Assembly: GCF_031458115.1 (NCBI RefSeq) | Contig: NZ_JAVDXV010000006.1 | Span: 382,276 to 414,275, forward strand | From: Roseateles asaccharophilus | GTDB taxonomy: Bacteria; Pseudomonadota; Gammaproteobacteria; Burkholderiales; Burkholderiaceae_C | Direction of reading: 5' to 3' | DNA length: 32,000 nt | Shown here: piece after piece, positions 5,169 to 20,933 of the stretch | Position numbering within the stretch: the first letter of the stretch is position 1 | Layout: each line of letters begins with the position of its first letter | Position numbers and translations under genes: made by a program | The notes under the pieces: generated by a model | Database searches by the model: none | What the model was told of the DNA's origin: nothing | Seen by the model: only the letters and a program-made list of their open reading frames with translations

Positions 5169-6473
<1,305 letters not shown>

Positions 6474-6535
6474 TCAGAAATCGAACATGAAAACGGCGCC
6501 GATGTCAGCGCCGCCGGATGCATGAGGCACCGGCT

Positions 6536-7516
6536 TCAAGATCGAGAGGCGCTCACCTCGGCCATGGACTTGTCGCCCAGGCCCATGGGCAGCGGGAAGC
6601 GCACATGCTCTTCCACGCCCGGCAGGCTGCGCACCGTGGTGGCGCCCAGCGCGCGCAGGCGGTCGATGACGGCCTGCACCAGCACGTCGGGTGCCGAGGC
6701 GCCGGCCGTCAGGCCCACGCGCGGGCGGCCTTCCACCCACTCGGCCTTCAGGTCCTCGGCGGCGTCCACCATGTAGCCGGGCGTGCCCAGGCGCTCGGCC
6801 AGTTCGCGCAGGCGGTTGCTGTTGGAGCTGGTGGGGCTGCCGACGACGATGACCACGTCCACCTGCGGCGCCAGCACCTTGACGGCGTCCTGGCGGTTCT
6901 GCGTGGCGTAGCAGATGTCCTGCTTCTTGGGCTCGCGCACTTGCGGGAACACGCGCTTCACCTCGGCCAGGATCTCGGCGGCGTCATCCACGCTCAGCGT
7001 GGTCTGCGTGACGACTGCCAGCTTGGTCTGGTCTTTCACCTGGACCTTGGCCACGTCCTCGACCTCTTCCACGAGGAAGATGCCGTCCGACAGCTGGCCC
7101 ATCGTGCCTTCGACCTCGGGGTGGCCCTTGTGGCCGATCATGATGAACTCGAAGCCCTCGCGGTGCAGCTTGGCCACTTCCACATGGACCTTGGTGACCA
7201 ACGGGCAGGTTGCGTCGAACACCTGGAAGCCGCGCGCGGCGGCCTCGCGGCGCACCTCCTGGCTGACGCCATGGGCGCTGAACACCAGCGTGGCGCCGGC
7301 CGGCACATCGGCCAGGTCCTCGATGAAGATGGCGCCGCGCGACTTCAGGTCGTTGACGACATAAGTGTTGTGCACGATCTCGTGGCGCACGTAGATGGGC
7401 GCGCCGAACTTGATCAGCGCGCGCTCGACGATCTCGATGGCGCGGTCCACGCCGGCGCAGAAGCCGCGCGGCTCGGCCAGCAGCACTTCCTGGAGATTCA
7501 CGGCGGCTTCCATCAC
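6536..7516 (-). CDS. ispH: 4-hydroxy-3-methylbut-2-enyl diphosphate reductase
   Basis: 326 aa with [25 protein letters not shown] and the typical IspH/LytB layout. Coupled to the upstream fkpB by an ATGA overlap. Confidence 0.95.
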
Positions 7517-8441: not shown

Positions 8442-8464
8442 GATCAGCGTGCTGTATTTGCGGA
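8442..8464. repeat. Left terminal inverted repeat (attL, phage-derived P' arm)
   Basis: GATCAGCGTGCTGTATTTGCGGA is the reverse complement of 20680-20702 with one mismatch. It is preceded by TC (8440-8441). Confidence 0.8.
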
Positions 8465-8498
8465 AATCGTGGCCTCCGCTCCGTGCGGCGTTACGGAG

Positions 8499-8529
8499 AA
8501 TTATGTGAATCTACATAATTATGTGAATC
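8499..8529 (+). repeat. Tandem direct repeat AATTATGTGAATC x2 (18-bp register) in an AT-rich patch
   Basis: Exact 13-mers at 8499-8511 and 8517-8529. Confidence 0.8.
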
Positions 8530-8544
8530 AGCATAACGCCTCGT

Positions 8545-8783
8545 AATGACGCACTGAGCGGCCCGCGGCAGGCGACAGCCCGCAGGGCAGTGACTCGCGG
8601 CCGCAGGCCGCTCCCCGCCGGTACGGCAGTGACTCTGATTGCGGCCGCTCAGCCTTTGCCGGAGGCAATGACTCTCAGCCCGCCGCAGGCGGGCTGCCAG
8701 GAATCATCCAGTGACTCGCCCCGCCGGCCAGGCGCCGCCGGAGGCGTGACTCTCGAAAACGCCCTTCCCTGCAGGTCGTTTTC
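8545..8783 (+). repeat. Periodic array of (G/A)TGACTC cores, each followed by a GC-rich hairpin (putative ori/packaging/iteron region)
   Basis: Cores at 8590, 8629, 8668, 8711 and 8746 (spacings 39, 39, 43, 35), plus a degenerate ATGACGC at 8546. Hairpins include 8597-8611, 8676-8696 and 8755-8783. Confidence 0.75.
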
Positions 8784-8809
8784 CACCCCTTCGATATCAG
8801 CGCCCCGCG

Positions 8810-8820
8810 CGCTATACAGG
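8810..8820 (+). promoter_or_regulatory. CGCTATACAGG motif, copy 1 (candidate phage promoter element upstream of the g5p operon)
   Basis: Same motif at 12141, 14911 and 16691, each upstream of a plus-strand phage gene or operon. Confidence 0.35.
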
Positions 8821-8955
8821 TTCAAGGGGGCCTTGAAAACAACAACAAGGTTCTGGGGCGCACCTTCCCCACTGTGAAGGTCGCCGGCGCGGCTCCAGCT
8901 CGCCCCCGGCCTACGCCGCAACTTCAACAACAACCGCTATTCCAAGGGGGAAATC

Positions 8956-9195
8956 ATGCTCAAAGTCGTCGTCTATCAAGCCCGCACCGCTCGTTCTGAA
9001 AAGACCGGTAAGGACTACGTCAGTCAGACCGTCGAAATCGTTCAGTCGCCTGATCGGCCGAACGTCACGATGCGTCGCTTCGCTAAGTCTGAAGCTGAGG
9101 CGCTCAAGCCCGGGCAGTACACCTGCAAAGTGTCCTTCTTCAACAAAGGACTTGACCTGTCGCAGTCGTTCTACGACTTCCAGCCTGCGAAGTAA
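8956..9195 (+). CDS. ssDNA-binding protein, Ff g5p-like
   Basis: 79 aa with AAGGGGG RBS. It starts MLKV.. and ends ..PGQYTCKVSFFNKG...FQPAK, paralleling M13 g5p as I recall it (MIKV...PGLYTVHLSSFKVG...LVPAK). Confidence 0.7.
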   Translation: MLKVVVYQARTARSEKTGKDYVSQTVEIVQSPDRPNVTMRRFAKSEAEALKPGQYTCKVSFFNKGLDLSQSFYDFQPAK

Positions 9196-9197
9196 GC

Positions 9198-9455
9198 ATG
9201 CCCGCCGGCTCGCTCGAGAACGTGATCGTCTGCCGGCCTTCTGCCACGCCAGCCGCTCCCTGCGGCGCCGGCGAGGCCCCGACGGTCCTTCAGGCGTATG
9301 TTCTCGCGCCCTCCAGCTCTTCGTTCGTCGACGCCGCTGCAGGCCCCTACGACTACGCCACGGGCGCCGCCTATTGGTCCGCAGCCTTCGTCTTCACCGT
9401 GTCGTTGTACTTGTGCACCCGAGTCATCGGCACCATCGTCAACATGGTTCGCTAA
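9198..9455 (+). CDS. Small membrane protein, unknown function
   Basis: ATG lies 2 nt after the g5p-like stop. There is a single C-terminal hydrophobic helix (AAYWSAAFVFTVSLYLCTRVIGTIV). Confidence 0.5.
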   Translation: MPAGSLENVIVCRPSATPAAPCGAGEAPTVLQAYVLAPSSSSFVDAAAGPYDYATGAAYWSAAFVFTVSLYLCTRVIGTIVNMVR

Positions 9456-9524
9456 CGCCGCTGGACGCATCCAGCAACCGCCGCGGGTCGGACACCCGCA
9501 CGCTTCAATAAGGAGAACAACAAC

Positions 9525-9740
9525 ATGAAGCTGAACCGTACCGCCGCGCTCGTCGCTGCATCCGTACTGGCCGCACCGGCCGCCTTTGCTGCCGGCCCTA
9601 GCGCTGGTGACCTGTCCAACTTGACGCCCGACGGCGCAACGATCATGACCGCGATTGGCGCCGTCGCCCTCGTGCTCATCGGCATCAACCTGGGCCTCAA
9701 GGGCTTCCGCATCGTCCAGTCCCTGGTCGGCAAGCGCTGA
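9525..9740 (+). CDS. Major coat protein, g8p-like
   Basis: AAGGAG RBS. Signal peptide ends in AFA. The mature ~48 aa has an acidic N-terminus, a hydrophobic core (IMTAIGAVALVLIGINLGL) and a basic C-terminus (KGFRIVQSLVGKR). Confidence 0.8.
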   Translation: MKLNRTAALVAASVLAAPAAFAAGPSAGDLSNLTPDGATIMTAIGAVALVLIGINLGLKGFRIVQSLVGKR

Positions 9741-9748
9741 TAGCGCAG

Positions 9749-9776
9749 AAGGGGCGGCTAACCCCGCCCCTTTCTC
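9749..9776 (+). terminator. Rho-independent terminator/attenuator after the coat gene
   Basis: GGGGCGG-CTAACC-CCGCCCC followed by TTTCTC. This is the typical position after an inovirus g8. Confidence 0.65.
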
Positions 9777-9792
9777 ATCAAGGGGGCCTTTT

Positions 9793-9882
9793 ATGACGAT
9801 CAACGAGCTCTGGTACCTGACGCTGTTCGTGCACGGCGTCATCTGCGCTTGCGCAGTCATCGCTGGCTTGCGGGGTCGTTGA
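9793..9882 (+). CDS. 29-aa hydrophobic protein, g7p/g9p-like minor coat candidate
   Basis: AAGGGGG RBS 6 nt upstream of ATG 9793. MTINELWYLTLFVHGVICACAVIAGLRGR. The stop lies 1 nt before the g3p-like start. Confidence 0.5.
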   Translation: MTINELWYLTLFVHGVICACAVIAGLRGR

Positions 9883-9883
9883 C

Positions 9884-11563
9884 ATGCGCAAGCTGCTCAT
9901 CGCTCTTCTAGCGTTCTCTGTCATCTTCTTTGCTGTTGAGCGCGTACGCGCACAGGCACTACCCTCTTCACCGTTCTCGATCACCGCTAGCGACGCGCTC
10001 ACACTTGCCCGCCAGTCATGGGGAAGTGCATCGCTCATCGTCGGTGGCGGCACCGCCGTCGCAACTACGCTAGCTACCGCTGCCGGCGGCTTGTTCGGTA
10101 TCACGCCTATCGGCTGGGCGGGCATTGGTCTCGTTCTGCTCGCTACAGTGTTGATGACAAGCGACGCCTCTGGCAACTCAATCGCTGTTGTCGTCTCTAC
10201 GCAAGACATCGACGCGTCGCCCAATCCAGACCTTGCTTCGGGCGGTCAGACAACCTCTGGCGTCAGCAACTACTACGCGCTTGCGCCGGTAACGGGCGGC
10301 ATCGTCAAATATATCTCTAGCTCTAGTTGGTCGGCAGTCGGCTCAGATATATTGTCAGAGCCCGCACTACGACTGCGCGCGTATATCGCAACGATGTTCG
10401 CCGTGCCTAACAGTTGGCTGGTCAATAGCATCACCCAGGTCGGCAATACATATGTTGCCAGCAACGGCGGCGATACAACTAATATTGCGTTGGGTCGCTG
10501 CCCGTCTACCTCTTCAGGTTGTGTCGCACTTATATTTACTGCGCCCGTCGGGACTACCAAAGCTGAGTTTGAGTCAGTAATACCGGCCCTGCCGCCGTTC
10601 GCTGCCGCAGCTTGGACGATTCGGCCTAGTGGCGGAGCTCGCCCCTATTTCGCCATCGCAGTTCCTCTGGTTCTCGTCAACGAGATTATCAACTGCGACC
10701 CTTCGACGAGTTACTACGAATACTCTACAGCCAGCTGCATTCTGCTAAAGCCTACAACTACTGAGCCGCTTTCCAACGGTATGTGCCGAGTTAGCTGGTC
10801 TACGGATGGCTGCCCGGTATTCAACCGGCAAGACCCGGACTGCGCTTCAGCAGCCATCACTTTGTCTTGCGGTAGTGCGTCAGTCGCGCCATCGGTCACT
10901 GTTCTTGATCGAGCCACGGGTCAGACAGTTACTACCTCGCGCCCTGCTGTCGCTAGCCAAGGCCAACCGGGCTCTGTAACTGTCAAAGAGCGTACTCCCA
11001 ACGCAGCAAATGGCACTACTGTTGAGCGCTTGACTACAACGCAGTACCAAGCCGCCCCGGCGGGTCAGCCGAAGCCTGCGCCCGTCACCAACGGCGCTAA
11101 CCAGTCGACGTTGCCGGGCACTGGCGCTAACACCGGCAGCACGCCTGTCGCGCAGGTATCTGTGAGCAACTGGCCCTCGGTCGTAAACGTTCAAGGCACG
11201 GTCACGTGCACGAACTGCTCGACCGCTCAACAGCCCGTCAATATCAACGTGCCCGACCGCTTCAAGATTGACGGCGAAGTTCCCGCTGACGCGACCGGCC
11301 TGCCTACGCCGCCTGAGGCCGCCCCGCCAGCCGGCTTCATCACGAAGCTCAAAGAACGCCTTGCCGGCTTCGCAAACATCGAGCTGCCGCCGCACACAGC
11401 CACGTGCCCGCGCCTGGACATCAGCTGGCACGCATGGGGCGTCAATCTCGACTTGTCTAACAACACGATGTGCGCGTTTCTCGAAGAGCACCGCACGCTC
11501 TTCCAGGGCCTCATGCACTTCGCTTACATCGCCACCGCGATCATCATCGTCTTGGGAGCCTGA
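9884..11563 (+). CDS. Adsorption/minor coat protein, g3p-like
   Basis: 559 aa with a signal peptide, paired Cys residues, Ser/Thr/Pro/Gly-rich linkers and a C-terminal membrane anchor (FAYIATAIIIVLGA). Position matches g3. Confidence 0.7.
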   Translation: MRKLLIALLAFSVIFFAVERVRAQALPSSPFSITASDALTLARQSWGSASLIVGGGTAVATTLATAAGGLFGITPIGWAGIGLVLLATVLMTSDASGNSIAVVVSTQDIDASPNPDLASGGQTTSGVSNYYALAPVTGGIVKYISSSSWSAVGSDILSEPALRLRAYIATMFAVPNSWLVNSITQVGNTYVASNGGDTTNIALGRCPSTSSGCVALIFTAPVGTTKAEFESVIPALPPFAAAAWTIRPSGGARPYFAIAVPLVLVNEIINCDPSTSYYEYSTASCILLKPTTTEPLSNGMCRVSWSTDGCPVFNRQDPDCASAAITLSCGSASVAPSVTVLDRATGQTVTTSRPAVASQGQPGSVTVKERTPNAANGTTVERLTTTQYQAAPAGQPKPAPVTNGANQSTLPGTGANTGSTPVAQVSVSNWPSVVNVQGTVTCTNCSTAQQPVNINVPDRFKIDGEVPADATGLPTPPEAAPPAGFITKLKERLAGFANIELPPHTATCPRLDISWHAWGVNLDLSNNTMCAFLEEHRTLFQGLMHFAYIATAIIIVLGA

Positions 11564-11566
11564 CGC

Positions 11567-11863
11567 ATGTACGCAGCACTTCTCGCCGTCCTGGGCCGCG
11601 TTTTTGCGTGGGTCATGGGCGCCGGCACGCTCAAATGGGCCGTTGGAGCATTCTTGCTCTTCGGCGTCACGATCCTCGTCGACATCCTGCTCGACCTGCT
11701 TCCCACTTGGTTCGACCCAGCCCAGCTCGTCGGCGCGACCTCCGTCTTCACGCCCTCGATCTGGTACTTCCTGGACTACTTCGCTTTCCAGACCGGGCTC
11801 TCGATGATGTTTGCCGCGTACGCAGTGCGTTTCTTGATTCGTCGTCTCCCGGTCATCGGCTAA
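11567..11863 (+). CDS. Integral membrane minor coat protein, g6p-like
   Basis: 98 aa, multi-helix hydrophobic, immediately after the g3p-like gene. Confidence 0.6.
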   Translation: MYAALLAVLGRVFAWVMGAGTLKWAVGAFLLFGVTILVDILLDLLPTWFDPAQLVGATSVFTPSIWYFLDYFAFQTGLSMMFAAYAVRFLIRRLPVIG

Positions 11864-11897
11864 GAAGCAGTGATCCCCTCTGGGGACGCCTAAACGG

Positions 11898-12140
11898 CTA
11901 ATCCGGCTTCGTCAGCTCAGCGCTGTGTACTCGCACCGCGTGCGAACCGCTCACTTGACACGTTAGTTTGTCGCCGACTCGCAGATCGCGCCAGTCCACG
12001 CCTTCCACACTCTTCCCTATGCTGAGCTGCAGCCCGCCTTCTGACTCAGCTCTTGCTATCTCGAGCTCTGCGACGACTGCCGTCACTGTCGCCGTGACAG
12101 TCTGCTGTTCGTAGTTCATGTGCTGATGTTGCCTGCGCAT
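11898..12140 (-). CDS. Doubtful reverse-strand 80-aa ORF in the g6-g1 gap
   Basis: It is the only ORF in a 303-bp plus-strand gap. There is no convincing RBS at either ATG (12140 or 12119), and it uses rare codons. Confidence 0.3.
   Translation of the reverse strand: MRRQHQHMNYEQQTVTATVTAVVAELEIARAESEGGLQLSIGKSVEGVDWRDLRVGDKLTCQVSGSHAVRVHSAELTKPD
12082..12098. promoter_or_regulatory. Inverted repeat GTCAC-N7-GTGAC
   Basis: GTCACTGTCGCCGTGAC, about 45 bp upstream of CGCTATACGG motif copy 2. Confidence 0.35.
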
Positions 12141-12150
12141 CGCTATACGG
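12141..12150 (+). promoter_or_regulatory. CGCTATACGG motif, copy 2 (upstream of zot/g1p)
   Basis: CGCTATACGGTCAAAAGGGGG parallels CGCTATACAGGTTCAAGGGGG at 8810-8830. Confidence 0.35.
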
Positions 12151-12166
12151 TCAAAAGGGGGACCGC

Positions 12167-13261
12167 ATGGCTATTCATGCAATCACAGGCGTTATGGGCT
12201 CTGGCAAGAGCTACGAAGCCGTTTCAGAGAAGATCGTTCCAGCGCTTCGAGACGAGGCCGCTCGTCGCGTAGTCACGAACATCGAAGGCTTGTCTGTGCC
12301 AGCTATCGCTGCGTACATCAACAAGCCTGAGAGCGAGGTCGAAGCACGCATCGTTCGAATCAGCTACGACCGCGTCAGCGAACCTGGCTTCTGGTACGAC
12401 CCTGAGCACGGCTCGGGGTCCGAAACCGTTGTCCAGCCCGGCGACCTGGTCGTACTCGACGAGGTCTGGCGCTATTTCAACCGTGGCGACAAACTGCCCG
12501 AGGATGCAATGCGCTTCTTCCGCATGCACCGACACTACGTGAGCGAGCAATCGGGTCTCACCTGCGACGTTGTGCTCATCAACCAGAGCTTTCGCGGTAT
12601 ACACCAGGACATTCGCGACGTAGTCGAGTTGCAGTTCCAATGCCGCAAGCTCAAAGCCCTCGGACGGCCTCAGAACTACCAAGTGCTCTTGCTGGAGGGC
12701 GGCGAGCGCAAGCCCTCGCACGACTACATTCGCACTTACTCGAAGAGGGTCTTCCCGCTATACAGCAGCTACGCCGGCGGCCAGGGCAAAGAGGCTGTCG
12801 ACAAGCGGCAGAGCGTCTTCAACACGCCCTTCTTCAAGGTCGTTCTGCCGCTGTTCGCGGTCCTCATGGTCTTCGGCGTCTACAAGACGTACAGCTACTT
12901 CGCCGACATGGGCAAGCCGGCTGACGGCGCAGCGCTCGTAACCCCATCAGCTGCTGCGTCATCGCCTTCGGGCCTGCCGACGCCGCCGTCAGCTGGTGCG
13001 GCTCCTGCGCCTGCGCAGTCAGCTTTCAGCACTGCGTCTGGCTCCGCGGCCGATTGGCGCCTCGTCGCACGCTACAGCGTCGGTGGCTTGCCTGTTGTCG
13101 TCATGGTCAACGCCAGTGGCCAGTACCGAACTGTGACGAGCGGCAGCTACACGCAGGGCGCGTCCACTGACGTCTCAGTACAGATTCCGCTCGATCCGTC
13201 TGATCGCGCTACGCCTTGGTCTGGCCCTGCTCCTGCATCGACCAAGGGGGCCGCGCGATGA
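12167..13261 (+). CDS. Zot/g1p-family assembly ATPase
   Basis: N-terminal Walker A GVMGSGKS, DE Walker B (VVLDEVW), a central TM helix (VVLPLFAVLMVFGVY) and a periplasmic C-terminal part. Confidence 0.85.
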   Translation: MAIHAITGVMGSGKSYEAVSEKIVPALRDEAARRVVTNIEGLSVPAIAAYINKPESEVEARIVRISYDRVSEPGFWYDPEHGSGSETVVQPGDLVVLDEVWRYFNRGDKLPEDAMRFFRMHRHYVSEQSGLTCDVVLINQSFRGIHQDIRDVVELQFQCRKLKALGRPQNYQVLLLEGGERKPSHDYIRTYSKRVFPLYSSYAGGQGKEAVDKRQSVFNTPFFKVVLPLFAVLMVFGVYKTYSYFADMGKPADGAALVTPSAAASSPSGLPTPPSAGAAPAPAQSAFSTASGSAADWRLVARYSVGGLPVVVMVNASGQYRTVTSGSYTQGASTDVSVQIPLDPSDRATPWSGPAPASTKGAAR

Positions 13262-14610
13262 ACCGCAAGATCGCCCTCATCGGCGGCTTCCTCGTTGTGA
13301 AGAAGATCGTCGTCATCGCGGTGCTGGCGATGCTCGTCGGGTCGAGTGAAGCCCAGCCGGCGCTCAAGCTCCCGCCGCCTCCGGCGCCGGTGCCTGCCTC
13401 CGGCTTTCAGACGTTCGGCACTGGTCTACCCCTTGCCGAGTTCTTGAAGATCGCTCTAGGCGAGCTCTCTGGCCGCCCCTACGTTCTCGCTCCGGAGGTG
13501 GCTGCTTCGTCTCAGCTTGTTGCTGCAGACCTGACTAAGTCGAAACTCAAAGACCCGCTGCCGCTCGTCCGGGCCGTCATTGAGCCGCTTGGCCTCGAAA
13601 TCCGAGACCTCGGCGGCGTTCTGCTCGTCGACAAGCGCCGCACTGAGGCATCGAAGAAGAGTCCAGGTGACACGTTCACCTACCGCCCTCGGCATCGCTC
13701 TGTCAACAGCCTTTCGACGTACTTCAATATGTTCCCCGAGCTCGCTTTCAGCTACTCGGGCGGCCTCGCTGTCCGCGCCCAGACCGTCTCCAGCTCCGAC
13801 TCCACCGAGCCCGGCAAGGCTCTGCAGCCGACCATGAGTAGCGGCGCCACCACTTTTAGCGCGCAGGACAAAGACCCGAGCTTTCTCGTCGTCGCCGGCG
13901 ACGCCGCAGAGATTAGTCGTTTCAAGACCTTGATCGTTGAGTTGGATGTGCCTGTTCCCCAGGTGCTCGTCAAGGCCTATGTGTTTGAAGTCCGGACTAC
14001 AGACGCTCGCGATGGCGGTGTGAAGCTCGTCGCTGATCTGCTTGGCGGCCGCGTCGGCTTCAACCTCGGCGGCGCGTCCAGTTCTACCACGCCGGATGCT
14101 CTACGACTCACTCTTCCCAACGTCAGTCTTGCTGTGTCTGCGCTGGCTGCGGACAGCAGAGTGCGCCTCGTCAGCTCGCCGGTTCTCAGAGTTGATGACA
14201 GCACTACCGCTAGCGCTACTGTGGGCACCTCTACGCCCACTCTGGGTGCTATCGTCAGTCAGAACGGCTCGACCCAGCAGAGCGTGTCATATCAAGAGGC
14301 CGGCGTTTTGCTGTCTGTTAGCGCGCGAGTCCTTGAAGCGAGCATCCGTCTTACCATCTCGCAAGAGCTGTCTAGCTTCGTCAAAACGGACACCGGGCTC
14401 TCGAACACTCCGACTAAGCTCCGCCGCGCTTTCAAATCTGACGTTGTCGCCCGTGACGGCGAAGCTCTTCTGCTCGGGGGCCTGACAGAAGCTCAAACGT
14501 CTGATGCCAAGCAAACCAGCTTCTTCGGCTTCGGCTCAGCCTCTAAGTCGACTTCAAGCTCTGAAGTCGTCGTGCTGTTGACTGCTACTCGTCTCGATCA
14601 GCAGCAGTGA
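13258..14610 (+). CDS. Secretin, g4p-like
   Basis: ATG 13258 overlaps the zot stop as ATGA. Signal/TM N-terminus and a C-terminal secretin-type domain (VLVKAYVFEV...RLVSSPVLRV...YQEAGVLLSV...ALLLGGL). Confidence 0.85.
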   Translation: MNRKIALIGGFLVVKKIVVIAVLAMLVGSSEAQPALKLPPPPAPVPASGFQTFGTGLPLAEFLKIALGELSGRPYVLAPEVAASSQLVAADLTKSKLKDPLPLVRAVIEPLGLEIRDLGGVLLVDKRRTEASKKSPGDTFTYRPRHRSVNSLSTYFNMFPELAFSYSGGLAVRAQTVSSSDSTEPGKALQPTMSSGATTFSAQDKDPSFLVVAGDAAEISRFKTLIVELDVPVPQVLVKAYVFEVRTTDARDGGVKLVADLLGGRVGFNLGGASSSTTPDALRLTLPNVSLAVSALAADSRVRLVSSPVLRVDDSTTASATVGTSTPTLGAIVSQNGSTQQSVSYQEAGVLLSVSARVLEASIRLTISQELSSFVKTDTGLSNTPTKLRRAFKSDVVARDGEALLLGGLTEAQTSDAKQTSFFGFGSASKSTSSSEVVVLLTATRLDQQQ

Positions 14611-14866
14611 GTGAGTCGATCCACATCTGCCATTCCTCATAAAACACACACTCCGTGCCGTCTTCGAGAAGCAGCAAAGCTCGCCTACTTCGCGCGAATT
14701 GAACGCATTTGTCTCTAACTTCTTCACCCATATCAGAGAGCACTACGTACCGAGTGCCACATGGCGTTGCGTGTACCGGTGTGAATCTCTTCTTCGACGC
14801 CACACAGCCTCCAAGCGTAAATATATGTAACAAGCCCGGGTCAGCCAAAAACGCCCACTGAATCAA
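14585..14866 (-). CDS. Orphan hypothetical protein (AT-rich cargo)
   Basis: 93-aa ORF convergent with and overlapping the secretin 3' end by 26 nt. No recognisable motif, and the start is uncertain. Confidence 0.4.
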   Translation of the reverse strand: MIQWAFLADPGLLHIFTLGGCVASKKRFTPVHATPCGTRYVVLSDMGEEVRDKCVQFARSRRALLLLEDGTECVFYEEWQMWIDSLTAADRDE

Positions 14867-14889
14867 GGCAGTTCTTCTAGCGCCTCCAA

Positions 14890-14905
14890 GTCACGATTTC
14901 GTGAC
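14890..14905. promoter_or_regulatory. Palindrome GTCACGA-TT-TCGTGAC (operator candidate)
   Basis: 7-bp perfect arms, 5 bp upstream of CGCTATACAGG copy 3, in a divergent intergenic region. Confidence 0.45.
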
Positions 14906-14910
14906 CTCGA

Positions 14911-14921
14911 CGCTATACAGG
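14911..14921 (+). promoter_or_regulatory. CGCTATACAGG motif, copy 3
   Basis: Identical 11-mer to 8810-8820. It lies upstream of the ORF starting at 14972. Confidence 0.35.
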
Positions 14922-14971
14922 TATGTACGGGCTGCGCGTTGCAGCCCCACCCAACCCTGAAAGGCGCTTCC

Positions 14972-15415
14972 ATGAACTTCGAATACTTTGACGACGGTTG
15001 CCATCACAATCTCGGCGACATCAATACAAATGGATATGTTTTCGTCGCATCTCAAGATGAAAACATTTCGTCTAGTGAGCTTGAATCTGCTGCATATGAA
15101 GCAGACGCGCGTCGCTTCTGCGCTGATTTGAAGACAATTCGTCGCATCAGCATGCTACCTGTGACTTTTCTTACGGGGCACCATGTCGTAGCTTGCATTC
15201 GAGTTACTACAGCGTCTCGGACGTATTCGCTCTACACCAACGATTTTGGTGACAGCCTGCTTGATGAGTCGCACTACACATTGTTCTTCAAACGCAATTT
15301 CAGTCTCTTTCGCTACGATCTTCAGACTCCTCAAGGCCGGGCCGCTGCTCGTGAATATGTTCGTCGCAAGTTGAAGTTTTTGGCACAGCACGGCAAGCCT
15401 TTTGACGGTTATTGA
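14972..15415 (+). CDS. Orphan hypothetical protein (AT-rich cargo)
   Basis: ATG 14972 within ORF 14939..15415 (the track start is TTG). 147 aa (MNFEYFDDGCHHNLGD...) with no recognisable motif. Confidence 0.5.
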   Translation: MNFEYFDDGCHHNLGDINTNGYVFVASQDENISSSELESAAYEADARRFCADLKTIRRISMLPVTFLTGHHVVACIRVTTASRTYSLYTNDFGDSLLDESHYTLFFKRNFSLFRYDLQTPQGRAAAREYVRRKLKFLAQHGKPFDGY

Positions 15416-15528
15416 GTACGCGCGGCGGTCGGCGGACAGCGAGCGAGGAGCGGACGGACACACATGCCTCGCCCGCACCGCAGCGAGGGTCCGTCGCCCG
15501 CCGCGACTCTTCAAAAACTCCAGTCCGG

Positions 15529-15711
15529 CTAGGCCGATTTCGCGCCCGTCAGTTTTGTAATTGCGTTCCTATACTGAATTGGAAGCGTGGTCACACTAGG
15601 GTACACATCGGCGGGCACTGGGGAGTGCCCGTCGTCCTTTCCGAATCTTTCTTCCACCTCGGCCGGCGTCAATCTGACGAACGGCCTCTTTTTCGCGTCA
15701 ATTTCGGTCAT
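15529..15711 (-). CDS. Small hypothetical protein, last gene of the reverse-strand operon
   Basis: 60 aa. Its ATG overlaps the upstream stop as ATGA (15708-15711). KKRPFVRLTPAEVEERF could be a ribbon-helix-helix, which is speculative. Confidence 0.45.
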   Translation of the reverse strand: MTEIDAKKRPFVRLTPAEVEERFGKDDGHSPVPADVYPSVTTLPIQYRNAITKLTGAKSA

Positions 15712-16088
15712 TCTTGATCTTCTTGATGCTCGCCCGCGCCCCGGCGCGGGCCCTGGTCCGGGTTTGCTTTCTTCGCTATCACTAGGTCGCCGACGACGTC
15801 AAACTCGATCTGCTGTCCTGGCCGCAGGTCCATAGCTCTACGTATCGCTGCGGGTATCGTTATTAAGTTCCGCCTGTTCATGGTCGAGTGCCATTGCATA
15901 CTCTGCTTCGCTCGGTCGACTATCGTCTCGACGCGAGGAACAAGCTCAGACTTCAGCGCTTCTGCGATCCAGCGCACTTCGTGCTCAGACGGGTCGTGAA
16001 TTCGAATCTGCGCCACGATCTGCTGCACGAGCTCTGACAGCACTCTGTTGCGCTCAAACTGAATCATTTCTTCGTCACTCGGGATCAT
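15708..16088 (-). CDS. Protein with a C-terminal AbrB/SpoVT/MazE-type DNA-binding domain (candidate phage regulator or antitoxin)
   Basis: NLITIPAAIRRAMDLRPGQQIEFDVVGDLVIAKK fits the looped-hinge-helix pattern. The likely start is ATG 16088 (MIPSDEE..). The track ORF extends to 16130. Confidence 0.55.
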   Translation of the reverse strand: MIPSDEEMIQFERNRVLSELVQQIVAQIRIHDPSEHEVRWIAEALKSELVPRVETIVDRAKQSMQWHSTMNRRNLITIPAAIRRAMDLRPGQQIEFDVVGDLVIAKKANPDQGPRRGAGEHQEDQE

Positions 16089-16434
16089 TTTTGATCCCAA
16101 AAGCTCGGTACGCGGCTTCTCTAGACACAATGTGCTTGTTCTCGGGCGCTGACGCTGCTGCGATCACGCGCAGCGCACCTTCCGCAGTCTTGAACCGCTC
16201 TTCTGTCGTGCGGATGAGCCATCGCACGTCTGCTCTCGTGAGCGCCCAGCACTTCTCGTTCGACTGCCGCATCAGCGGCCGCGCCAGGTATGCGACTTTG
16301 AATCCAGCACTGTGCGCCCGCCTGCGTGTTGCCACGCTTACAAGCTGATCCGCGAGGTCGTTGAGCTTCTCGAAGCGCAAGAACATCTGCCCTTCGTTGT
16401 CGAAGTCCGTCATATCCGCACAGTCTTGGTGCAT
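16075..16434 (-). CDS. Hypothetical protein, first gene of the reverse-strand regulatory operon
   Basis: 119-aa ORF divergent from rep, overlapping the next gene by 14 nt. An alternative start is at 16413. No motif recognised. Confidence 0.5.
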   Translation of the reverse strand: MHQDCADMTDFDNEGQMFLRFEKLNDLADQLVSVATRRRAHSAGFKVAYLARPLMRQSNEKCWALTRADVRWLIRTTEERFKTAEGALRVIAAASAPENKHIVSREAAYRAFGIKNDPE

Positions 16435-16636
16435 TTCAATAGCTTGCCGCTATCGAAAAATCGACGGTTTCGCGCCTCCCGGCTGCATCGAGTTTTTGCA
16501 ATCCTCACTACGTCGGACAGCAGCCTGAGGCTGCATGACTCTACTCTAACGTCGGACGGCATGGGGAGCCTATCTTCTCTCGCTTCAAAAACTCGATGCT
16601 AGACCGTCGCTCCTGAGTCGGCAAAAAGCGCATTTC

Positions 16637-16648
16637 TTGCTATAGCAA
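16637..16648. promoter_or_regulatory. Perfect 12-bp palindrome TTGCTATAGCAA
   Basis: Read directly, in the rep/regulator divergent intergenic region. Confidence 0.4.
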
Positions 16649-16667
16649 AAACCAATCGACTTTCGGG

Positions 16668-16680
16668 GTCAAGACTTGAC
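16668..16680. promoter_or_regulatory. Palindrome GTCAAG-A-CTTGAC overlapping a TTGACA hexamer
   Basis: 6-bp perfect arms, 10 bp upstream of CTATACGGG motif copy 4 (16691-16699). Confidence 0.4.
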
Positions 16681-16690
16681 ATCGCCGGAC

Positions 16691-16699
16691 CTATACGGG
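16691..16699 (+). promoter_or_regulatory. CTATACGGG motif, copy 4 (upstream of rep)
   Basis: Shares CTATAC(A/G)GG with copies at 8812, 12143 and 14913. Confidence 0.35.
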
Positions 16700-16792
16700 G
16701 TGTACCCCCACAACGGCCCCGCGAGGTAGATCACAGCGCACTGCGCAAATCGAGGACATGAGTCGGATAGGGCCATCAACCCAGCCCTCCCC

Positions 16793-18736
16793 ATGTCCGC
16801 TTCTACTGCCATCTCCCCGGCGGAGCTTCTCCACTCTGCAGAGCTCAACGCCGCTCCCGCACCTTCATCTGCCTTCGGCCCGCTGCCCCTCGCAAAGGCG
16901 CTGCAAGCCGGCCTTCTCGCTGCACGCGCAGAGTTCTGCGGCGACCTTCCAGCCCACCTTATTGGCGCCACTGCGCCGGAGCGCTACGACGCCGCTGCTG
17001 CGACGGCTGAGCGCTTTCAAATGCTTCTGGGAACGGCGAGTGACGATCACGCTCTGCTTGACCGCCTTGTTCAGCTTGCGCAGGCCGATCTGGGTGGCTT
17101 CGCTTGGCGCAGCTCGACCGTCGCGTCGGCGGTCACCTCGAAGTTGATCGAGCGGCACAAAGTGGAGCTCAAGTCTGTCGCGGCCGTCTTTGAGTTCGAT
17201 GCTTCTGTGGGCGAGCGTGTTCTAGCTATCGCCAACGCACACCTCGGCCGTCCTGTTCCCGGCGACTCGCTTCAAACGAAGGTCTCGCGCATACTCGACC
17301 GCAAGTTCTGGCTTCGGCACTACTCAAAGCTCGCCCGCCAGCGTGACGAGTTCTCCTTCATCAAGTCCGGCTTCGTTTCTGCGGCTGGCGAGAAGTACAT
17401 CAGCGACCGCGGTCTGTCACGCCACTCCGAAGCTCTGGCGGCACAGCAAGCGTGGCTCGAGTCGACCGTCCTCATCGACCACAGCGCAGCAGCTTCTACT
17501 GGCAAGTTCAAGTACATCAAGCTCGCTGACGCAGCGAAGCGCGCGGCGCACCGTGATGCAAGCCTGTGGGCGTTCCTCACCGGCATCGAGCAGCTCAGCA
17601 TCGAATCCAACCTCGAATGCGCGCTCGTCACCCTTACGGCGCCGTCATCCTTTCACGCCTGCCCCGGCACTCGCTCCAAGTTGTTCGACGGCGTCAGCAC
17701 ACCCCTCGACTCGCACAAGTACATCGCTAGCCGCTGGACGGCCTTCCAGCGCGATCTTGACAACGAAGGCCTCGCGGTCAGCGGTGTCCGCGCTACTGAA
17801 CCGCAGGGCGACGGCACATGCCATTGGCATGTCTGGCTGCACTATGCGCCCGACACTCTGCCGAGCATCCTCTCCCGCTTGGCTCACTACTTCCAAGGCG
17901 ACACCGCTCGCCGTGTCGAACCTGTAGTCGTTCGTCAGGTCGAAGCTGACTTGGCCGGCCGCAAGGTCAACAAGAAGACCGGTGAGCGCTTCAGTGAGTC
18001 GTTCAGCGTTCTGCGCGCCGGGGCGCTCGTTCAGCGTTCAACGAAGCCAGCTGCTCAGGTCGACTTCAGCGTCATCAATCGCTCGTACGCGTCCGGCGCT
18101 ACTTACATGGCCAAGTACACGGTCAAGTCGTTCGATCAGTCCGAGAACAGCAAGCGTGTCCACGCATGGCGCTGGACCTGGGGCGTACGCGGCTTCCAGC
18201 TCTTCGGGCTGCGCAACTGCCGCGGACTCTGGGATGAGCTCTACCGCGCCACTGAGCGCCCCTTCGATTCGCGCGCCGCTGCGCTGTGGGACGCTGTCCA
18301 CGCTGAGCCCGGCAAGCACACCCGCCAGGTCATCAACCCGCTTACTGGACTGCAGGAGGTTGAGCACTACGAGGGGGGCACCGCTGCATTCATTCGCCTT
18401 CAAGGCGGCCTCGCGGCTGCCGGTGGCGCTGCAGGCCTGCGCATCAAGATCACCTACGTGCCTGCTGAAGGACGCTATGGCGACTTCATGAAGCGCCGCC
18501 GCGGACTTCGCATCATGCTTGGCGACACGGTGCTCTACAGCTTCAAAACCCGCGAGCCGGGGCGCTGGGTCATGTCTGCCGAGGGACGCGTTGAGCAGAC
18601 CTTCAGCGCTCTGCGCCGCATCCCGTTCGTCGATGCGGCAGAGCTGATCGAGCTGACCTGCGCTGAGTTCAAAGCCCTCCTCGCCAGCTATGCGGCCGGC
18701 GTCGACCCGTTCACCGGCGAAATCCTCGACGCATAG
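16793..18736 (+). CDS. Rolling-circle replication initiator (HUH endonuclease)
   Basis: 647 aa. HUH-type motif GTCHWHVWLHY (HWH at 17822-17830) and tyrosine motif YMAKYTVK (Y..KY at 18104-18118). Confidence 0.75.
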   Translation: MSASTAISPAELLHSAELNAAPAPSSAFGPLPLAKALQAGLLAARAEFCGDLPAHLIGATAPERYDAAAATAERFQMLLGTASDDHALLDRLVQLAQADLGGFAWRSSTVASAVTSKLIERHKVELKSVAAVFEFDASVGERVLAIANAHLGRPVPGDSLQTKVSRILDRKFWLRHYSKLARQRDEFSFIKSGFVSAAGEKYISDRGLSRHSEALAAQQAWLESTVLIDHSAAASTGKFKYIKLADAAKRAAHRDASLWAFLTGIEQLSIESNLECALVTLTAPSSFHACPGTRSKLFDGVSTPLDSHKYIASRWTAFQRDLDNEGLAVSGVRATEPQGDGTCHWHVWLHYAPDTLPSILSRLAHYFQGDTARRVEPVVVRQVEADLAGRKVNKKTGERFSESFSVLRAGALVQRSTKPAAQVDFSVINRSYASGATYMAKYTVKSFDQSENSKRVHAWRWTWGVRGFQLFGLRNCRGLWDELYRATERPFDSRAAALWDAVHAEPGKHTRQVINPLTGLQEVEHYEGGTAAFIRLQGGLAAAGGAAGLRIKITYVPAEGRYGDFMKRRRGLRIMLGDTVLYSFKTREPGRWVMSAEGRVEQTFSALRRIPFVDAAELIELTCAEFKALLASYAAGVDPFTGEILDA

Positions 18737-18929
18737 CGCCTCGCAAGTTCGAATCCGCCTGATCCGCTCAGGCCCACACACCCCGCACCCGCGGGGCGCA
18801 GCCACTGGCGAGCCTCTGAAGTGTGATGGGATTCGAACCAACCCTCAGGTCTGAGCTTCGCCGATCCGCGCGGCGCTTCGCGCGGGCGACGCCTCGAAAC
18901 CGGCTTAACCGGGCCGGCAAGGCGCCTCA

Positions 18930-18953
18930 GGCGGGCCCCGTAGGGGTCCCGCC
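18930..18953. terminator. GC-rich hairpin between convergent rep and recombinase genes
   Basis: GGCGGGCCCC-GTA-GGGG(T)CCCGCC. There is no clear U-tract, so terminator function is uncertain. Confidence 0.35.
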
Positions 18954-18991
18954 CTTGGATAGATATGCGTAACTTTCTAACCCTGAATTTA

Positions 18992-20611
18992 CTAGGACTT
19001 TTTGAGGCTCGGCAGTTCAAGCTCACCTTTCAGGCTTGCAGCCCAGGCCGGCTGCGCGTCGCCCTGCGCTTTCACCCCGAGCGGTATCGTCAGCAGCTGC
19101 TGCGAGTTCTTGAACTGAACTGCGACTAGGTCATACGCCCAGAGCCAAATCACGTCCACGGCTCGTCGTAGTCTGTTGTTGCAGTCCGCGCGTAGACGCA
19201 TCGCATCGTCTGACGTCTCGAACAGCACTGCGATGACTTGCTCTGCGTAAGCCGTGTCAAATAGCGAGTTTGGGTTGACTGCCAGCTGCGCTTTGAGCTC
19301 TTCGATGACGTTCTCAAGCTGCTCACGTTCAGCGGTCAACCTGGCAATGTCTTGAAGTACCTCGGGCACGGCGCCCACGGCTCTGCTGACTGCTACGACG
19401 TTTGCTATTGCGGTCTTCACGTCAGCGAGCTTTGACTCAGCTACCGCAACTTCTTTCACCGCTGCGTCTTTGTCGTACCCCAGGCCCAGGTGCGCTCCCG
19501 CGTACGCACATATGTCTAAGATGACCTGCGCTTCGGTCTTCAGCGCTGACATCGTCTTGCACTTCGTAATCCCGGCCGCTTTTGAAGAGCAGATCAGCTG
19601 TGCCCTGCTCCAGCCGCGGTACTCGACTTTTCGCTGTATCGACGCGCCACAGTGCCCGCACCTGAGCAGTCCACTGAATACGTGAAAGTAGTTGCCATCG
19701 CGTTTTGGCGGCGCTGTTTTGCGCGTCTGGACTGACGATCTTGCGAGGTGCCAGAGGTCGTCACTTATCACCCGAGGGTAGTAATCCTTGATCGGTGGTC
19801 CTACTGCTACAGGCACGTCACTCTCAAGCTCTTTCAACACGTTCTTGCCTTTGAGCTTGTGCTGAGCCTCTCCCAAAACTGCCCTGTTCTTCAGGATGAT
19901 TTGCGGCATCCTCGAATGCCAGTGTTCTGTTGTCATCGAGGTCACGCGTGTAGGTACCGGCCAGCCTTCTGCGTTCGCTAGCTTCGCAATCGTAGGCCCG
20001 CCCATTCCGCGGCCAGCCGCTTCGAACACTTTTCTCACGGACTCAGCCAGCTCTTCGACAACTTCCCAGTCGCCTCCCGCTTGACTTCTTCTCAGCCACC
20101 CCGGAGCTGAGCCGAAGACCTTCTTGCCTTCTTCTCGTTTTCGCTTGAACGTCTCGCTTACACGCCCGCCCTTGCGAAAGCTCTCTTCGTGCGCTTGCGC
20201 GAACGCAAGCATCATGCCGATCAGAGCGGCGATGTTGTTCAGCGACTTCTTCGTGTAGATGTGCCCGTCGAGCAACGTGACGATGTTCACGTCTTTGCGC
20301 AGGATCGACTTGACCAGCGTGTCTGCATCGTCAATCTCTTCGCGACTGAGCCGGTCGAAGTGTTCAATCAGCAGATAACTGCCCTTCGGCACCCTGCCCT
20401 CTTCCACCTGCTCCAAGAACGCCGCGAGGTTGCCTTTCGTTCTGTGCTTGCCGGTGAAAGCACTCAAGCCGAGGTCCGCGACGCTCTCATCGAGCTTCAT
20501 GCCGTGCTGCGCGCACCACCGCTCTGCTGCATCGCCCTGTCGTTCTTCTGAGCGCCCTTTTGATTGTCTTGCCGACGAAAATCGAACGTAGCTGATGACC
20601 CGAGGCTTCAT
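18992..20611 (-). CDS. Large serine recombinase (integrase)
   Basis: Resolvase-type N-terminus ([12 protein letters not shown]...[11 protein letters not shown]), a recombinase domain, a Cys4 zinc-ribbon (CGHCG...C..K..C) and a coiled-coil C-terminus. ATG 20611 is preferred; the track start TTG 20623 is possible. Confidence 0.9.
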
Positions 20612-20679
20612 GTCGATAGTCAAATCCTTGTTCCGAAGATATGGAATTCTAGTGCAGATCAGCGTTCAATATCTTCGAA

Positions 20680-20702
20680 TCCGCAAATACAGCACGCTCA
20701 TC
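20680..20702. repeat. Right terminal inverted repeat (attR, phage-derived P arm)
   Basis: TCCGCAAATACAGCACGCTCATC followed by TC (20703-20704). It is the reverse complement of 8442-8464 with one mismatch. Confidence 0.8.
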
Positions 20703-20933
20703 TCCACGACCGTTCACCCGCGCGAGGTCGTCAAGCGCGCGCTGGCGCTGGGCGCGGGTGCCGCCATCCTGGCGCACAACCACCCCAGCGGCCACGCCGA
20801 GCCGTCGCGCGCCGACGAGTTGCTGACGAAACAGCTCAGCGACGCGCTGGCGCTGGTGGACGTGCGCGTGGTGGATCACCTCGTCGTGGGCGCCGGTGAT
20901 GTCGTTTCCTTTGCCGAGCGGGGTCTGCTGTGA
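20703..20933 (+). pseudogene. radC 3' fragment (JAB/MPN domain)
   Basis: ..[42 protein letters not shown]...[21 protein letters not shown] carries the canonical RadC C-terminal motifs HNHPSG and SFAE. Confidence 0.9.

Follow-up and report, generated by a model that had tools for sequence, protein, structure and literature searches.

We analysed a 32,000-nucleotide stretch of Roseateles asaccharophilus DNA (contig NZ_JAVDXV010000006.1; the window), which carries an integrated filamentous phage, or inovirus prophage, of approximately 12 kb at about 8465–20650. Two open reading frames (ORFs) follow the phage secretin gene g4 (13216–14610; PF00263, phrog_1012). ORF1 (14585–14866, minus strand) has 93 codons from a TTG start and overlaps the secretin stop at 14610 by 26 nt. 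ORF2 (14972–15415, plus strand) has 147 codons from the ATG at 14972. The order along the window is secretin, spacer, ORF2, three minus-strand regulator genes and, 1.4 kb downstream of ORF2, rep, the gene for a P2-gpA-type (GPA) replication initiator (16793–18736, plus strand, PF05840). We find that ORF2 is, as judged from its conservation, a real gene, whose product belongs to a rare and uncharacterised protein family of mobile elements. ORF1 is probably a chance reading frame.

The prophage has a G+C content (GC) of 0.596, compared with 0.68–0.75 for the host DNA (0.68–0.69 in the flanks), and its AT-richest stretch is the region of the two ORFs, with a GC of 0.47 in ORF2 and 0.53 in the gap between the secretin and ORF2 (14611–14971). 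The first-pass annotation of this DNA had reported such a drop in composition after g4, and it had placed the two ORFs at these coordinates, with the minus-strand frame running into the 3' end of the secretin gene and a palindrome and a phage promoter motif lying between them. All of these features are present, the last two at 14890–14905 and 14913–14927.

The ORF2 protein family

We searched for relatives of ORF2 with increasing sensitivity. A word-indexed search returned one relative at 35% identity, and a profile search of 1.84 billion representative proteins returned 24 true members (clusters) of 93–209 residues, with E values down to 4e-25. A 25th match was rejected as a spurious hit to a repeat protein. 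The family alignment contains four strongly conserved motifs, TDxxGDGLY, RDFSLHRYDL, GR and AREYVRRKL, and a variable N-terminal extension (FDDGCHH) is common to a few members. The ATG start of ORF2 is backed by the N-termini (MN...) of members P0004 and P0024 and by conservation of the DNA up to the ATG. The minimal family members are mostly basic (isoelectric point 9–10.7) and not acidic, which rules out a DNA mimic or anti-restriction protein of that type.

We used AlphaFold2 (AF2) to explore the structure of ORF2. The mean predicted local distance difference test (pLDDT) score was 59.5 with a two-sequence alignment, a model that was not used, and rose to 86.4 with the family alignment, giving a confident prediction with a predicted template modelling (TM) score of 0.72. 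The model comprises a helix (residues 34–53), four strands (56–65, 72–80, 84–89 and 103–105) and a second helix (120–140). ORF2 is a small cytoplasmic α/β protein, in which an N-terminal helix is followed by a four-stranded sheet and by an invariant basic C-terminal helix that carries the AREYVRRKL motif. We regard ORF2 as real because its 24 family members share strongly conserved motifs and because the family alignment improved the model to this extent.

ORF2 has no match to a known fold or domain. Foldseek comparison of the model found no fold match in the PDB (best E = 0.28, TM-score about 0.2) or in BFVD (best E = 0.038, TM-score about 0.2), and the family profile returned nothing from the PDB sequences at E ≤ 10. 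ORF2 itself was unmatched in four hidden Markov model libraries (Pfam, PHROGs, NCBIfam and PADLOC). Among the 24 members, a single match to PHROGs was obtained (phrog_33741, itself of unknown function, E = 1e-4), and nothing from Pfam fell below E = 0.027. Comparison to the routine inovirus core proteins (gI–gX) revealed no homology, while the neighbouring g1, g4 and Rep proteins were recognised in the same searches. ORF2 and the short member P0005 gave no tblastn match in GenBank phages and no match in the PLSDB plasmids. A pattern scan based on the family alignment (A3) found one locus among genome contigs, in a Massilia metagenome-assembled genome (MAG), and none among viral contigs or metagenome contigs.

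These results bear on the first-pass annotation, which had described two orphan genes without a recognisable motif. Both ORFs are indeed unmatched in the four libraries, and the structural comparison that it had proposed leaves the confident ORF2 model without a counterpart in the PDB or BFVD. The orphan description itself holds only in part: ORF2 is a real gene of unknown function and is unlike routine inovirus proteins, but it has a 24-member family, and ORF1 is probably spurious.

Genomic setting and control regions of ORF2

We surveyed the genomic context of the family at 12 distinct loci, including the window. In 7 of the 11 other loci the ORF2 homologue is the direct neighbour of a gene for a replication initiator or a protein resembling one, and in L011, L012-14, L016/17, L005, L006 and L015 it lies directly upstream of that gene. 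Within the inovirus clade the position is fixed. In the closest relative, L007, the order is secretin, a hairpin element, a minus-strand helix-turn-helix (HTH) gene, a promoter block, the ORF2 homologue and a minus-strand homologue of the 119-residue regulator gene (orf119). L012-14 have secretin, ORF2 homologue, GPA Rep and serine recombinase, while L016/17 have secretin, serine recombinase, ORF2 homologue and, with a 75-bp gap, a GPA+UvrD Rep. The short contig L011, probably an inovirus in which Rep alone is identified, has the homologue followed by this GPA Rep. The homologue lies between secretin and Rep in all related inovirus lineages recovered (L007, L012-14, L016/17 and probably L011), and these lineages span secretin identities of 28% to 80%.

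The other loci are more diverse. L005 is inovirus-like with a tyrosine integrase and a different layout, and there the stop of the homologue overlaps the start of a 219-residue protein with a weak match to phrog_270 (replication initiator). L006, which is the Massilia MAG locus, and L015 are low-GC integrative islands; there an HTH_36 initiator-like gene comes after the homologue, and the Gabija genes gajA and gajB come next. In the plasmid-like contig L001 the homologue lies between a Rep3/TrfA-like gene, identified from weak, sub-threshold matches, and ParA. The homologue stands alone near an MmeI-type restriction-modification gene in L008-10, which resemble integrative and conjugative elements (ICEs), and adjoins endolysins in the tailed-phage-like contigs L002/3 and L004.

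Two of these settings merit description in their own right. The low-GC islands of L006 (3498–15166) and L015 (1–10740) encode a serine recombinase together with a member of the ORF2 family, an initiator-like protein of the HTH_36 type and a complete Gabija system (GajA, E = 9e-303; GajB, E = 4e-250). Their large serine recombinase is 39% identical to that of the window, and the recombinase and the ORF2 family are both common to these islands and the inoviruses. In L016 (8639–11209), the GPA-type initiator is fused to a UvrD-like helicase in a protein of 856 residues (Phage_GPA, UvrD-helicase and UvrD_C domains).

Comparison of the window with L007 reveals where the two phages differ. Their g1, g4 and g8 proteins are 79%, 80% and 81% identical, whereas ORF2 is 36% and orf119 29% identical. 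The flanking regulator set is variable as well as the ORF2 allele: the window has an AbrB/MazE-like gene and orf119 (15708–16434, minus strand), and L007 has an 88-residue HTH-like gene (5650–5916) and the 29%-identical orf119 homologue (6507–6851). These different immunity-type regulators suggest that the two phages are heteroimmune. In the 11 other loci the GC of the gene equals or exceeds that of its flanks, whereas in the window it is 13 points below (0.47 versus 0.60). A drop confined to the window suggests that the allele was replaced. We interpret the pattern, from sequence comparison, as that of a hypervariable immunity/regulatory region subject to allelic exchange and not of the acquisition of new cargo. 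A comparable difference is documented for phiRSM-type inoviruses, in which neither the regulator nor the sequence upstream of it is the same from one related phage to the next (PMC4471427).

The DNA upstream of ORF2 contains a conserved promoter/operator block (14811–14951), which is 75% identical over 141 nt to the intergenic region between the HTH gene and the ORF2 homologue of L007 (5938–6076). Within this block lies a perfect palindrome, GTCACGA-TT-TCGTGAC (14890–14905), which is unique in the window and forms a candidate operator. It is followed on the plus strand by the promoter motif CTATACAGGTATGTA (14913–14927), in which TATAC resembles a -10 element, and by an inverted repeat, GGCTGC-N5-GCAGCC (14930–14946), placed just 5' of the ribosome-binding site. 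The repeat is kept in L007, and its folding energy alone is not significant.

The same architecture of operator and CTATAC...TGTA motif occurs a second time, upstream of rep on the plus strand (16668–16704), where the palindrome GTCAAG-A-CTTGAC (16668–16680) precedes CTATACGGGGTGTA (16691–16704). The pattern CTATAC-N3-6-TGTA has two matches in 32 kb, one before ORF2 and one before rep, against 0.00 expected. The palindrome pattern has three matches in the window against 0.05 expected, two of them being the ORF2 and rep sites, although these statistics are optimistic since the operator pattern was defined post hoc from two sites. The shared design places ORF2 in the replication/regulation module rather than among free cargo.

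Relatives retain parts of this arrangement. The promoter motif is also found 5' of the ORF2 homologue in L007 and 5' of the operon that holds the homologue in L016/L017. In L012 a CTATAC element lies upstream of the homologue and of rep alike, and parts of the block (GATTTCGTG ... CTATAC ... GTATG) are recognisable in this much more distant phage. None of the relatives has the palindromes of the window, as would be expected if these are immunity operators specific to each phage. A second copy of the L012 palindrome TGTTTCACGTGAAACA, which would support autoregulation, was not found before the L012 rep.

Downstream of ORF2 lies a G+C-rich imperfect hairpin element (15421–15518), whose arms form a 30-nt inverted repeat. 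Positions 15438–15507 are 82% identical to 5494–5565 of L007, where the element comes immediately after the gene for the secretin. This is the position of the packaging signal in Ff phages. In the window the element instead comes after ORF2, and the change of place indicates that the DNA around the ORF2 cassette has been rearranged. The surrounding region (15400–15720) folds with z = -2.29. The gap after the secretin was itself considered as a single-strand origin or packaging hairpin, and this was ruled out by the unexceptional folding of 14611–14971 as single-stranded DNA (z = -0.72). We identified no canonical intrinsic terminator directly after ORF2. Further downstream, a perfect 11-bp G+C-rich stem-loop (15609–15634, z = -3.5), with a T-rich stretch behind it in plus-strand reading, lies inside the 60-residue minus-strand ORF (15529–15711); it may be the transcription terminator of ORF2, and it casts some doubt on the 60-residue ORF.

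Interpretation of ORF2 function

We propose that ORF2 belongs to the replication/regulation module as an early protein, is regulated jointly with rep and would tune this module by binding nucleic acid, and we give this composite reading a probability of about one half. The gene holds a fixed place in the replication/regulation region of the inovirus clade, between secretin and Rep, and in relatives the homologue lies immediately 5' of the initiator, often near enough for co-transcription. In the window phage, a minus-strand regulator cassette (the AbrB-like gene and others) would have come between ORF2 and rep, leaving the control region in duplicate, with both genes keeping the design of a GTCA..TGAC palindrome followed by CTATAC..TGTA. 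We infer that a single phage repressor could switch ORF2 and rep together, because both carry this design, and ORF2 would then be made early along with Rep. The invariant basic C-terminal helix and the conserved polar loops may be the parts with which the protein contacts nucleic acid, in order to tune rep expression, the copy number of the replicative form or the lysogeny switch. The DNA-binding step in particular is less likely than not. The AT-rich, highly diverged allele of the window would have arisen by allelic exchange in a hypervariable regulatory region of the heteroimmunity type.

In position, ORF2 resembles small regulators whose genes immediately precede that of an initiator, such as CopG of plasmid pMV158 (copG-repB) and Cnr of satellite phage P4 (cnr-alpha). 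Similarly, Cox of P2 is encoded by the first gene of an early operon that ends in the GPA-type gene A. ORF2 homologues are, like these, small, on the same strand and 5' of the initiator, and in relatives they may often be co-transcribed with it. In L007 the homologue and a repressor-like HTH gene point away from each other over a common control region, in the manner of C and Cox of P2, and the window Rep belongs to the P2 gpA family. However, ORF2 has no sequence or fold similarity to ribbon-helix-helix (RHH), HTH or winged-helix proteins, and in the window three minus-strand genes stand between it and rep.

Several observations weigh against the proposed role. Searches of Pfam and PHROGs and the Foldseek comparisons to the PDB and BFVD detected no HTH, RHH, winged-helix or other known DNA-binding fold in ORF2 or its family. 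Only 12 loci were surveyed, and four of them lack an adjacent recognised initiator: L002 and L004, where the homologue lies beside endolysins, L008-10, and L007, where the contig stops short of Rep. A distance of 1.4 kb separates ORF2 from rep in the window, and the gene converges there with the regulator operon. Closeness to rep is partly expected by chance in small genomes, and the accompanying initiators are of unrelated classes, which speaks against a dedicated pairing with any single initiator. The post hoc definition of the operator pattern, noted above, is to be counted here too.

A broader and less probable proposal is that ORF2 founds an undescribed fold family that travels with the replication modules of unrelated initiators (HUH/GPA, HTH_36-like and Rep3/TrfA-like) and performs a general function in establishment. 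Such a protein might be a new kind of switch for copy number or replication; alternatively, it might inhibit a host factor that keeps incoming mobile elements from replicating. Its carriers are filamentous phages, Gabija-carrying integrative islands, and plasmid-like and ICE-like elements.

Alternatively, ORF2 could be an accessory gene, or moron, for anti-defence, superinfection exclusion or host modulation, which is expressed from its own promoter and targets a host or competitor protein rather than replication control. The first-pass annotation had assigned the locus to a cargo slot of this kind. The moron-like character of ORF2 is borne out in several respects. The gene is small, an outlier in composition and putatively transcribed on its own, having a separate operator and promoter; its family is spread over unrelated mobile elements, including isolated members beside the MmeI-type gene of the ICE-like element and members adjoining endolysins in tailed-phage-like contigs. 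It has also diverged far faster than its structural neighbours (36% versus 80% identity), as in an arms race, and the lack of a known fold or domain is common among anti-defence proteins. However, the slot is not variable for ORF2. All related inovirus lineages recovered have a homologue, with the window, L007, L011, L012-14, L016/17 and L005 each carrying one, and the gene therefore does not behave as variable cargo within this clade. The direct coupling to an initiator gene in seven loci and the control architecture shared with rep also speak against a moron. The defence models of PADLOC give no match, and a protein that is not acidic does not resemble a DNA mimic. We regard a moron role as unlikely.

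It is less probable still that ORF2 is a replication accessory that acts by protein–protein contact, recruiting or neutralising a host replisome factor (helicase Rep, UvrD or DnaB, the single-stranded DNA-binding protein (SSB) or primase) on behalf of any initiator. P2 gpB and lambda P are comparable to such a protein in role, not in ancestry. A host-directed function would be a better fit to three unrelated initiator classes (GPA HUH endonuclease, HTH_36/phrog_270-like and Rep3/TrfA-like), and the Rep adjacent to the L016 homologue is fused to a UvrD helicase. One family member has a very weak match to DnaB_bind (E = 0.03), which is not significant. On the other side, there is no detectable similarity to known helicase loaders, some loci of the family have no adjacent initiator, and the interaction itself is hypothetical.

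We also compared the locus to the phiRSM and phiRSS inoviruses of Ralstonia, whose extra genes include ORF13, the ORF14 serine recombinase and the ORF15 repressor, and ORF10, ORF11 and ORF13 of phiRSS0. The window resembles these types in having a serine recombinase, reverse-oriented regulators and unknown ORFs, which either adjoin the genes for assembly or lie inside the replication module. The window and its relative L007 differ in regulator and upstream regulatory sequence, as phiRSM types do (PMC4471427). In contrast, tblastn with ORF2 and P0005 finds no sequence relative of ORF2 in any GenBank phage record. The phiRSM recombinase is resolvase-like and targets a tRNA-Ser gene (PMC4471427), whereas the window enzyme targets radC; it is of the large serine recombinase type and contains Recombinase and Zn-ribbon domains.

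Inovirus genomes are tiny, and a conserved gene of unknown function in their replication/regulation region is a gap in the understanding of how temperate filamentous phages control replication and lysogeny. In islands and plasmid-like elements, members of the same family adjoin initiators of unrelated types. To learn the function of ORF2 would therefore annotate a module that is shared across elements, and, as the predicted fold is unmatched in the PDB and BFVD, assignment of its structure and function would be new knowledge. The expected pay-off is moderate, given that the family is rare (24 clusters in 1.8 billion representatives) and that nothing points to an unusual mechanism.

ORF1 and the surrounding prophage

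ORF1 appears to be a chance ORF that runs across a phage-specific spacer and the edge of the conserved promoter block. The spacer (14602–14810; 209 bp, GC 0.52) separates the secretin end from this block, and blastn and tblastx found no counterpart to it in L007, in the other loci or in the rest of the window. A search of a 5.8 billion-protein collection returned no homologue of ORF1, not even the gene call from its own genome, and tblastn found no match in GenBank phages. ORF1 is unmatched in all 17 related loci retrieved and absent wherever an ORF2 homologue was found elsewhere. Against Pfam, PHROGs, NCBIfam and PADLOC it gave nothing except one chance match far below the cutoff. When the 361-bp gap was shuffled 2000 times with its dinucleotide composition preserved, 13.6% of the shuffles contained an ORF of at least 93 codons. 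Reading of the sequence upstream of the TTG start reveals a sole GGAGG, at a distance of 16 nt.

The comparison with L007 appears decisive for the status of ORF1 as a non-gene. The first ~18 codons of ORF1 lie within 14811–14951, the block that aligns to non-coding intergenic DNA of L007. At the position of ORF1, L007 has the 88-residue HTH-like gene, with a good Shine-Dalgarno sequence, and BLASTP found no similarity between the two. We considered whether ORF1 is a decayed form of this gene, which was ruled out by the lack of similarity in tblastx and blastn. Because it has no homologue, a length at chance level, a start in conserved non-coding DNA and an unrelated gene at its position in L007, ORF1 is probably spurious.

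The divergent gene pair of the first-pass annotation thus loses one of its members. A functional pair, whether regulator and target or of a toxin-antitoxin type, with ORF1 as a lineage-specific orphan, would be in keeping with the genuine divergent gene of L007, with a leftward sigma-70-like site at 14848–14820 and with a gap of 361 bp that is long for an inovirus if ORF1 is discounted. However, the leftward site lies within ORF1, downstream of the TTG, and 0.8 such sites are expected by chance, and other loci of the family also have upstream gaps of about 230–800 bp without a called gene. A search for toxin-antitoxin features in ORF1 and ORF2 found no toxin or antitoxin domains and no conserved two-gene unit. 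In view of these points, and of the missing homologue, the dissimilar L007 gene, the unremarkable length and the conserved non-coding start region, the pair is very improbable.

The prophage splits the host radC gene. Read from the translations, the N-terminal RadC frame ends near 8460 and the C-terminal part with the JAB domain restarts near 20650 (window 8460–8510 and 20595–20933). The left part of the prophage carries a g5-like SSB gene at 8956, g8 at 9525, g3 at 9884, g6 at 11567 and the Zot/g1 gene at 12167 before the secretin; an 85-residue ORF lies between the SSB gene and g8. To the right of ORF2, the minus strand carries the 60-residue ORF, the AbrB/MazE-like gene (15708–16130) and orf119 (16075–16434). 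Beyond rep, the minus strand encodes the large serine recombinase (18992–20623; Resolvase, Recombinase and Zn-ribbon domains). Megablast of 8900–20700 against GenBank phages found no relative of the whole prophage, and pattern scans for Rep and the secretin found no match in genome contigs or viral contigs. By tblastn, the secretin and Rep have only distant matches in GenBank phages, at 24–34% identity.

The DNA upstream of rep (16430–16800) is non-coding and strongly structured, with a single-stranded DNA fold at z = -3.43 and a 14-bp perfect inverted repeat (16485–16498 and 16586–16599). Positions 16491–16572 are 79% identical to 1096–1178 of L011, which likewise lie just upstream of its GPA Rep, and the region is a candidate origin or packaging element. 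A search of 14400–16900 against Rfam gave no non-coding RNA match at E ≤ 1.

Finally, two observations concern the morphogenesis genes. L007 has two apparent g8-like (major coat protein) segments, at 25–225 and 2381–2530, which are 81% and 56% identical to the window g8. In the window, an 80-residue ORF on the minus strand (11898–12140) lies between g6 and g1, within an otherwise plus-strand morphogenesis module. This ORF has a counterpart in L007 at about 2717–2899 (41% identity, E = 9e-15) and is matched in the tailed-phage-like contig L002 (635–817, E = 1.5e-7), and, being conserved in both, it is therefore a real gene.

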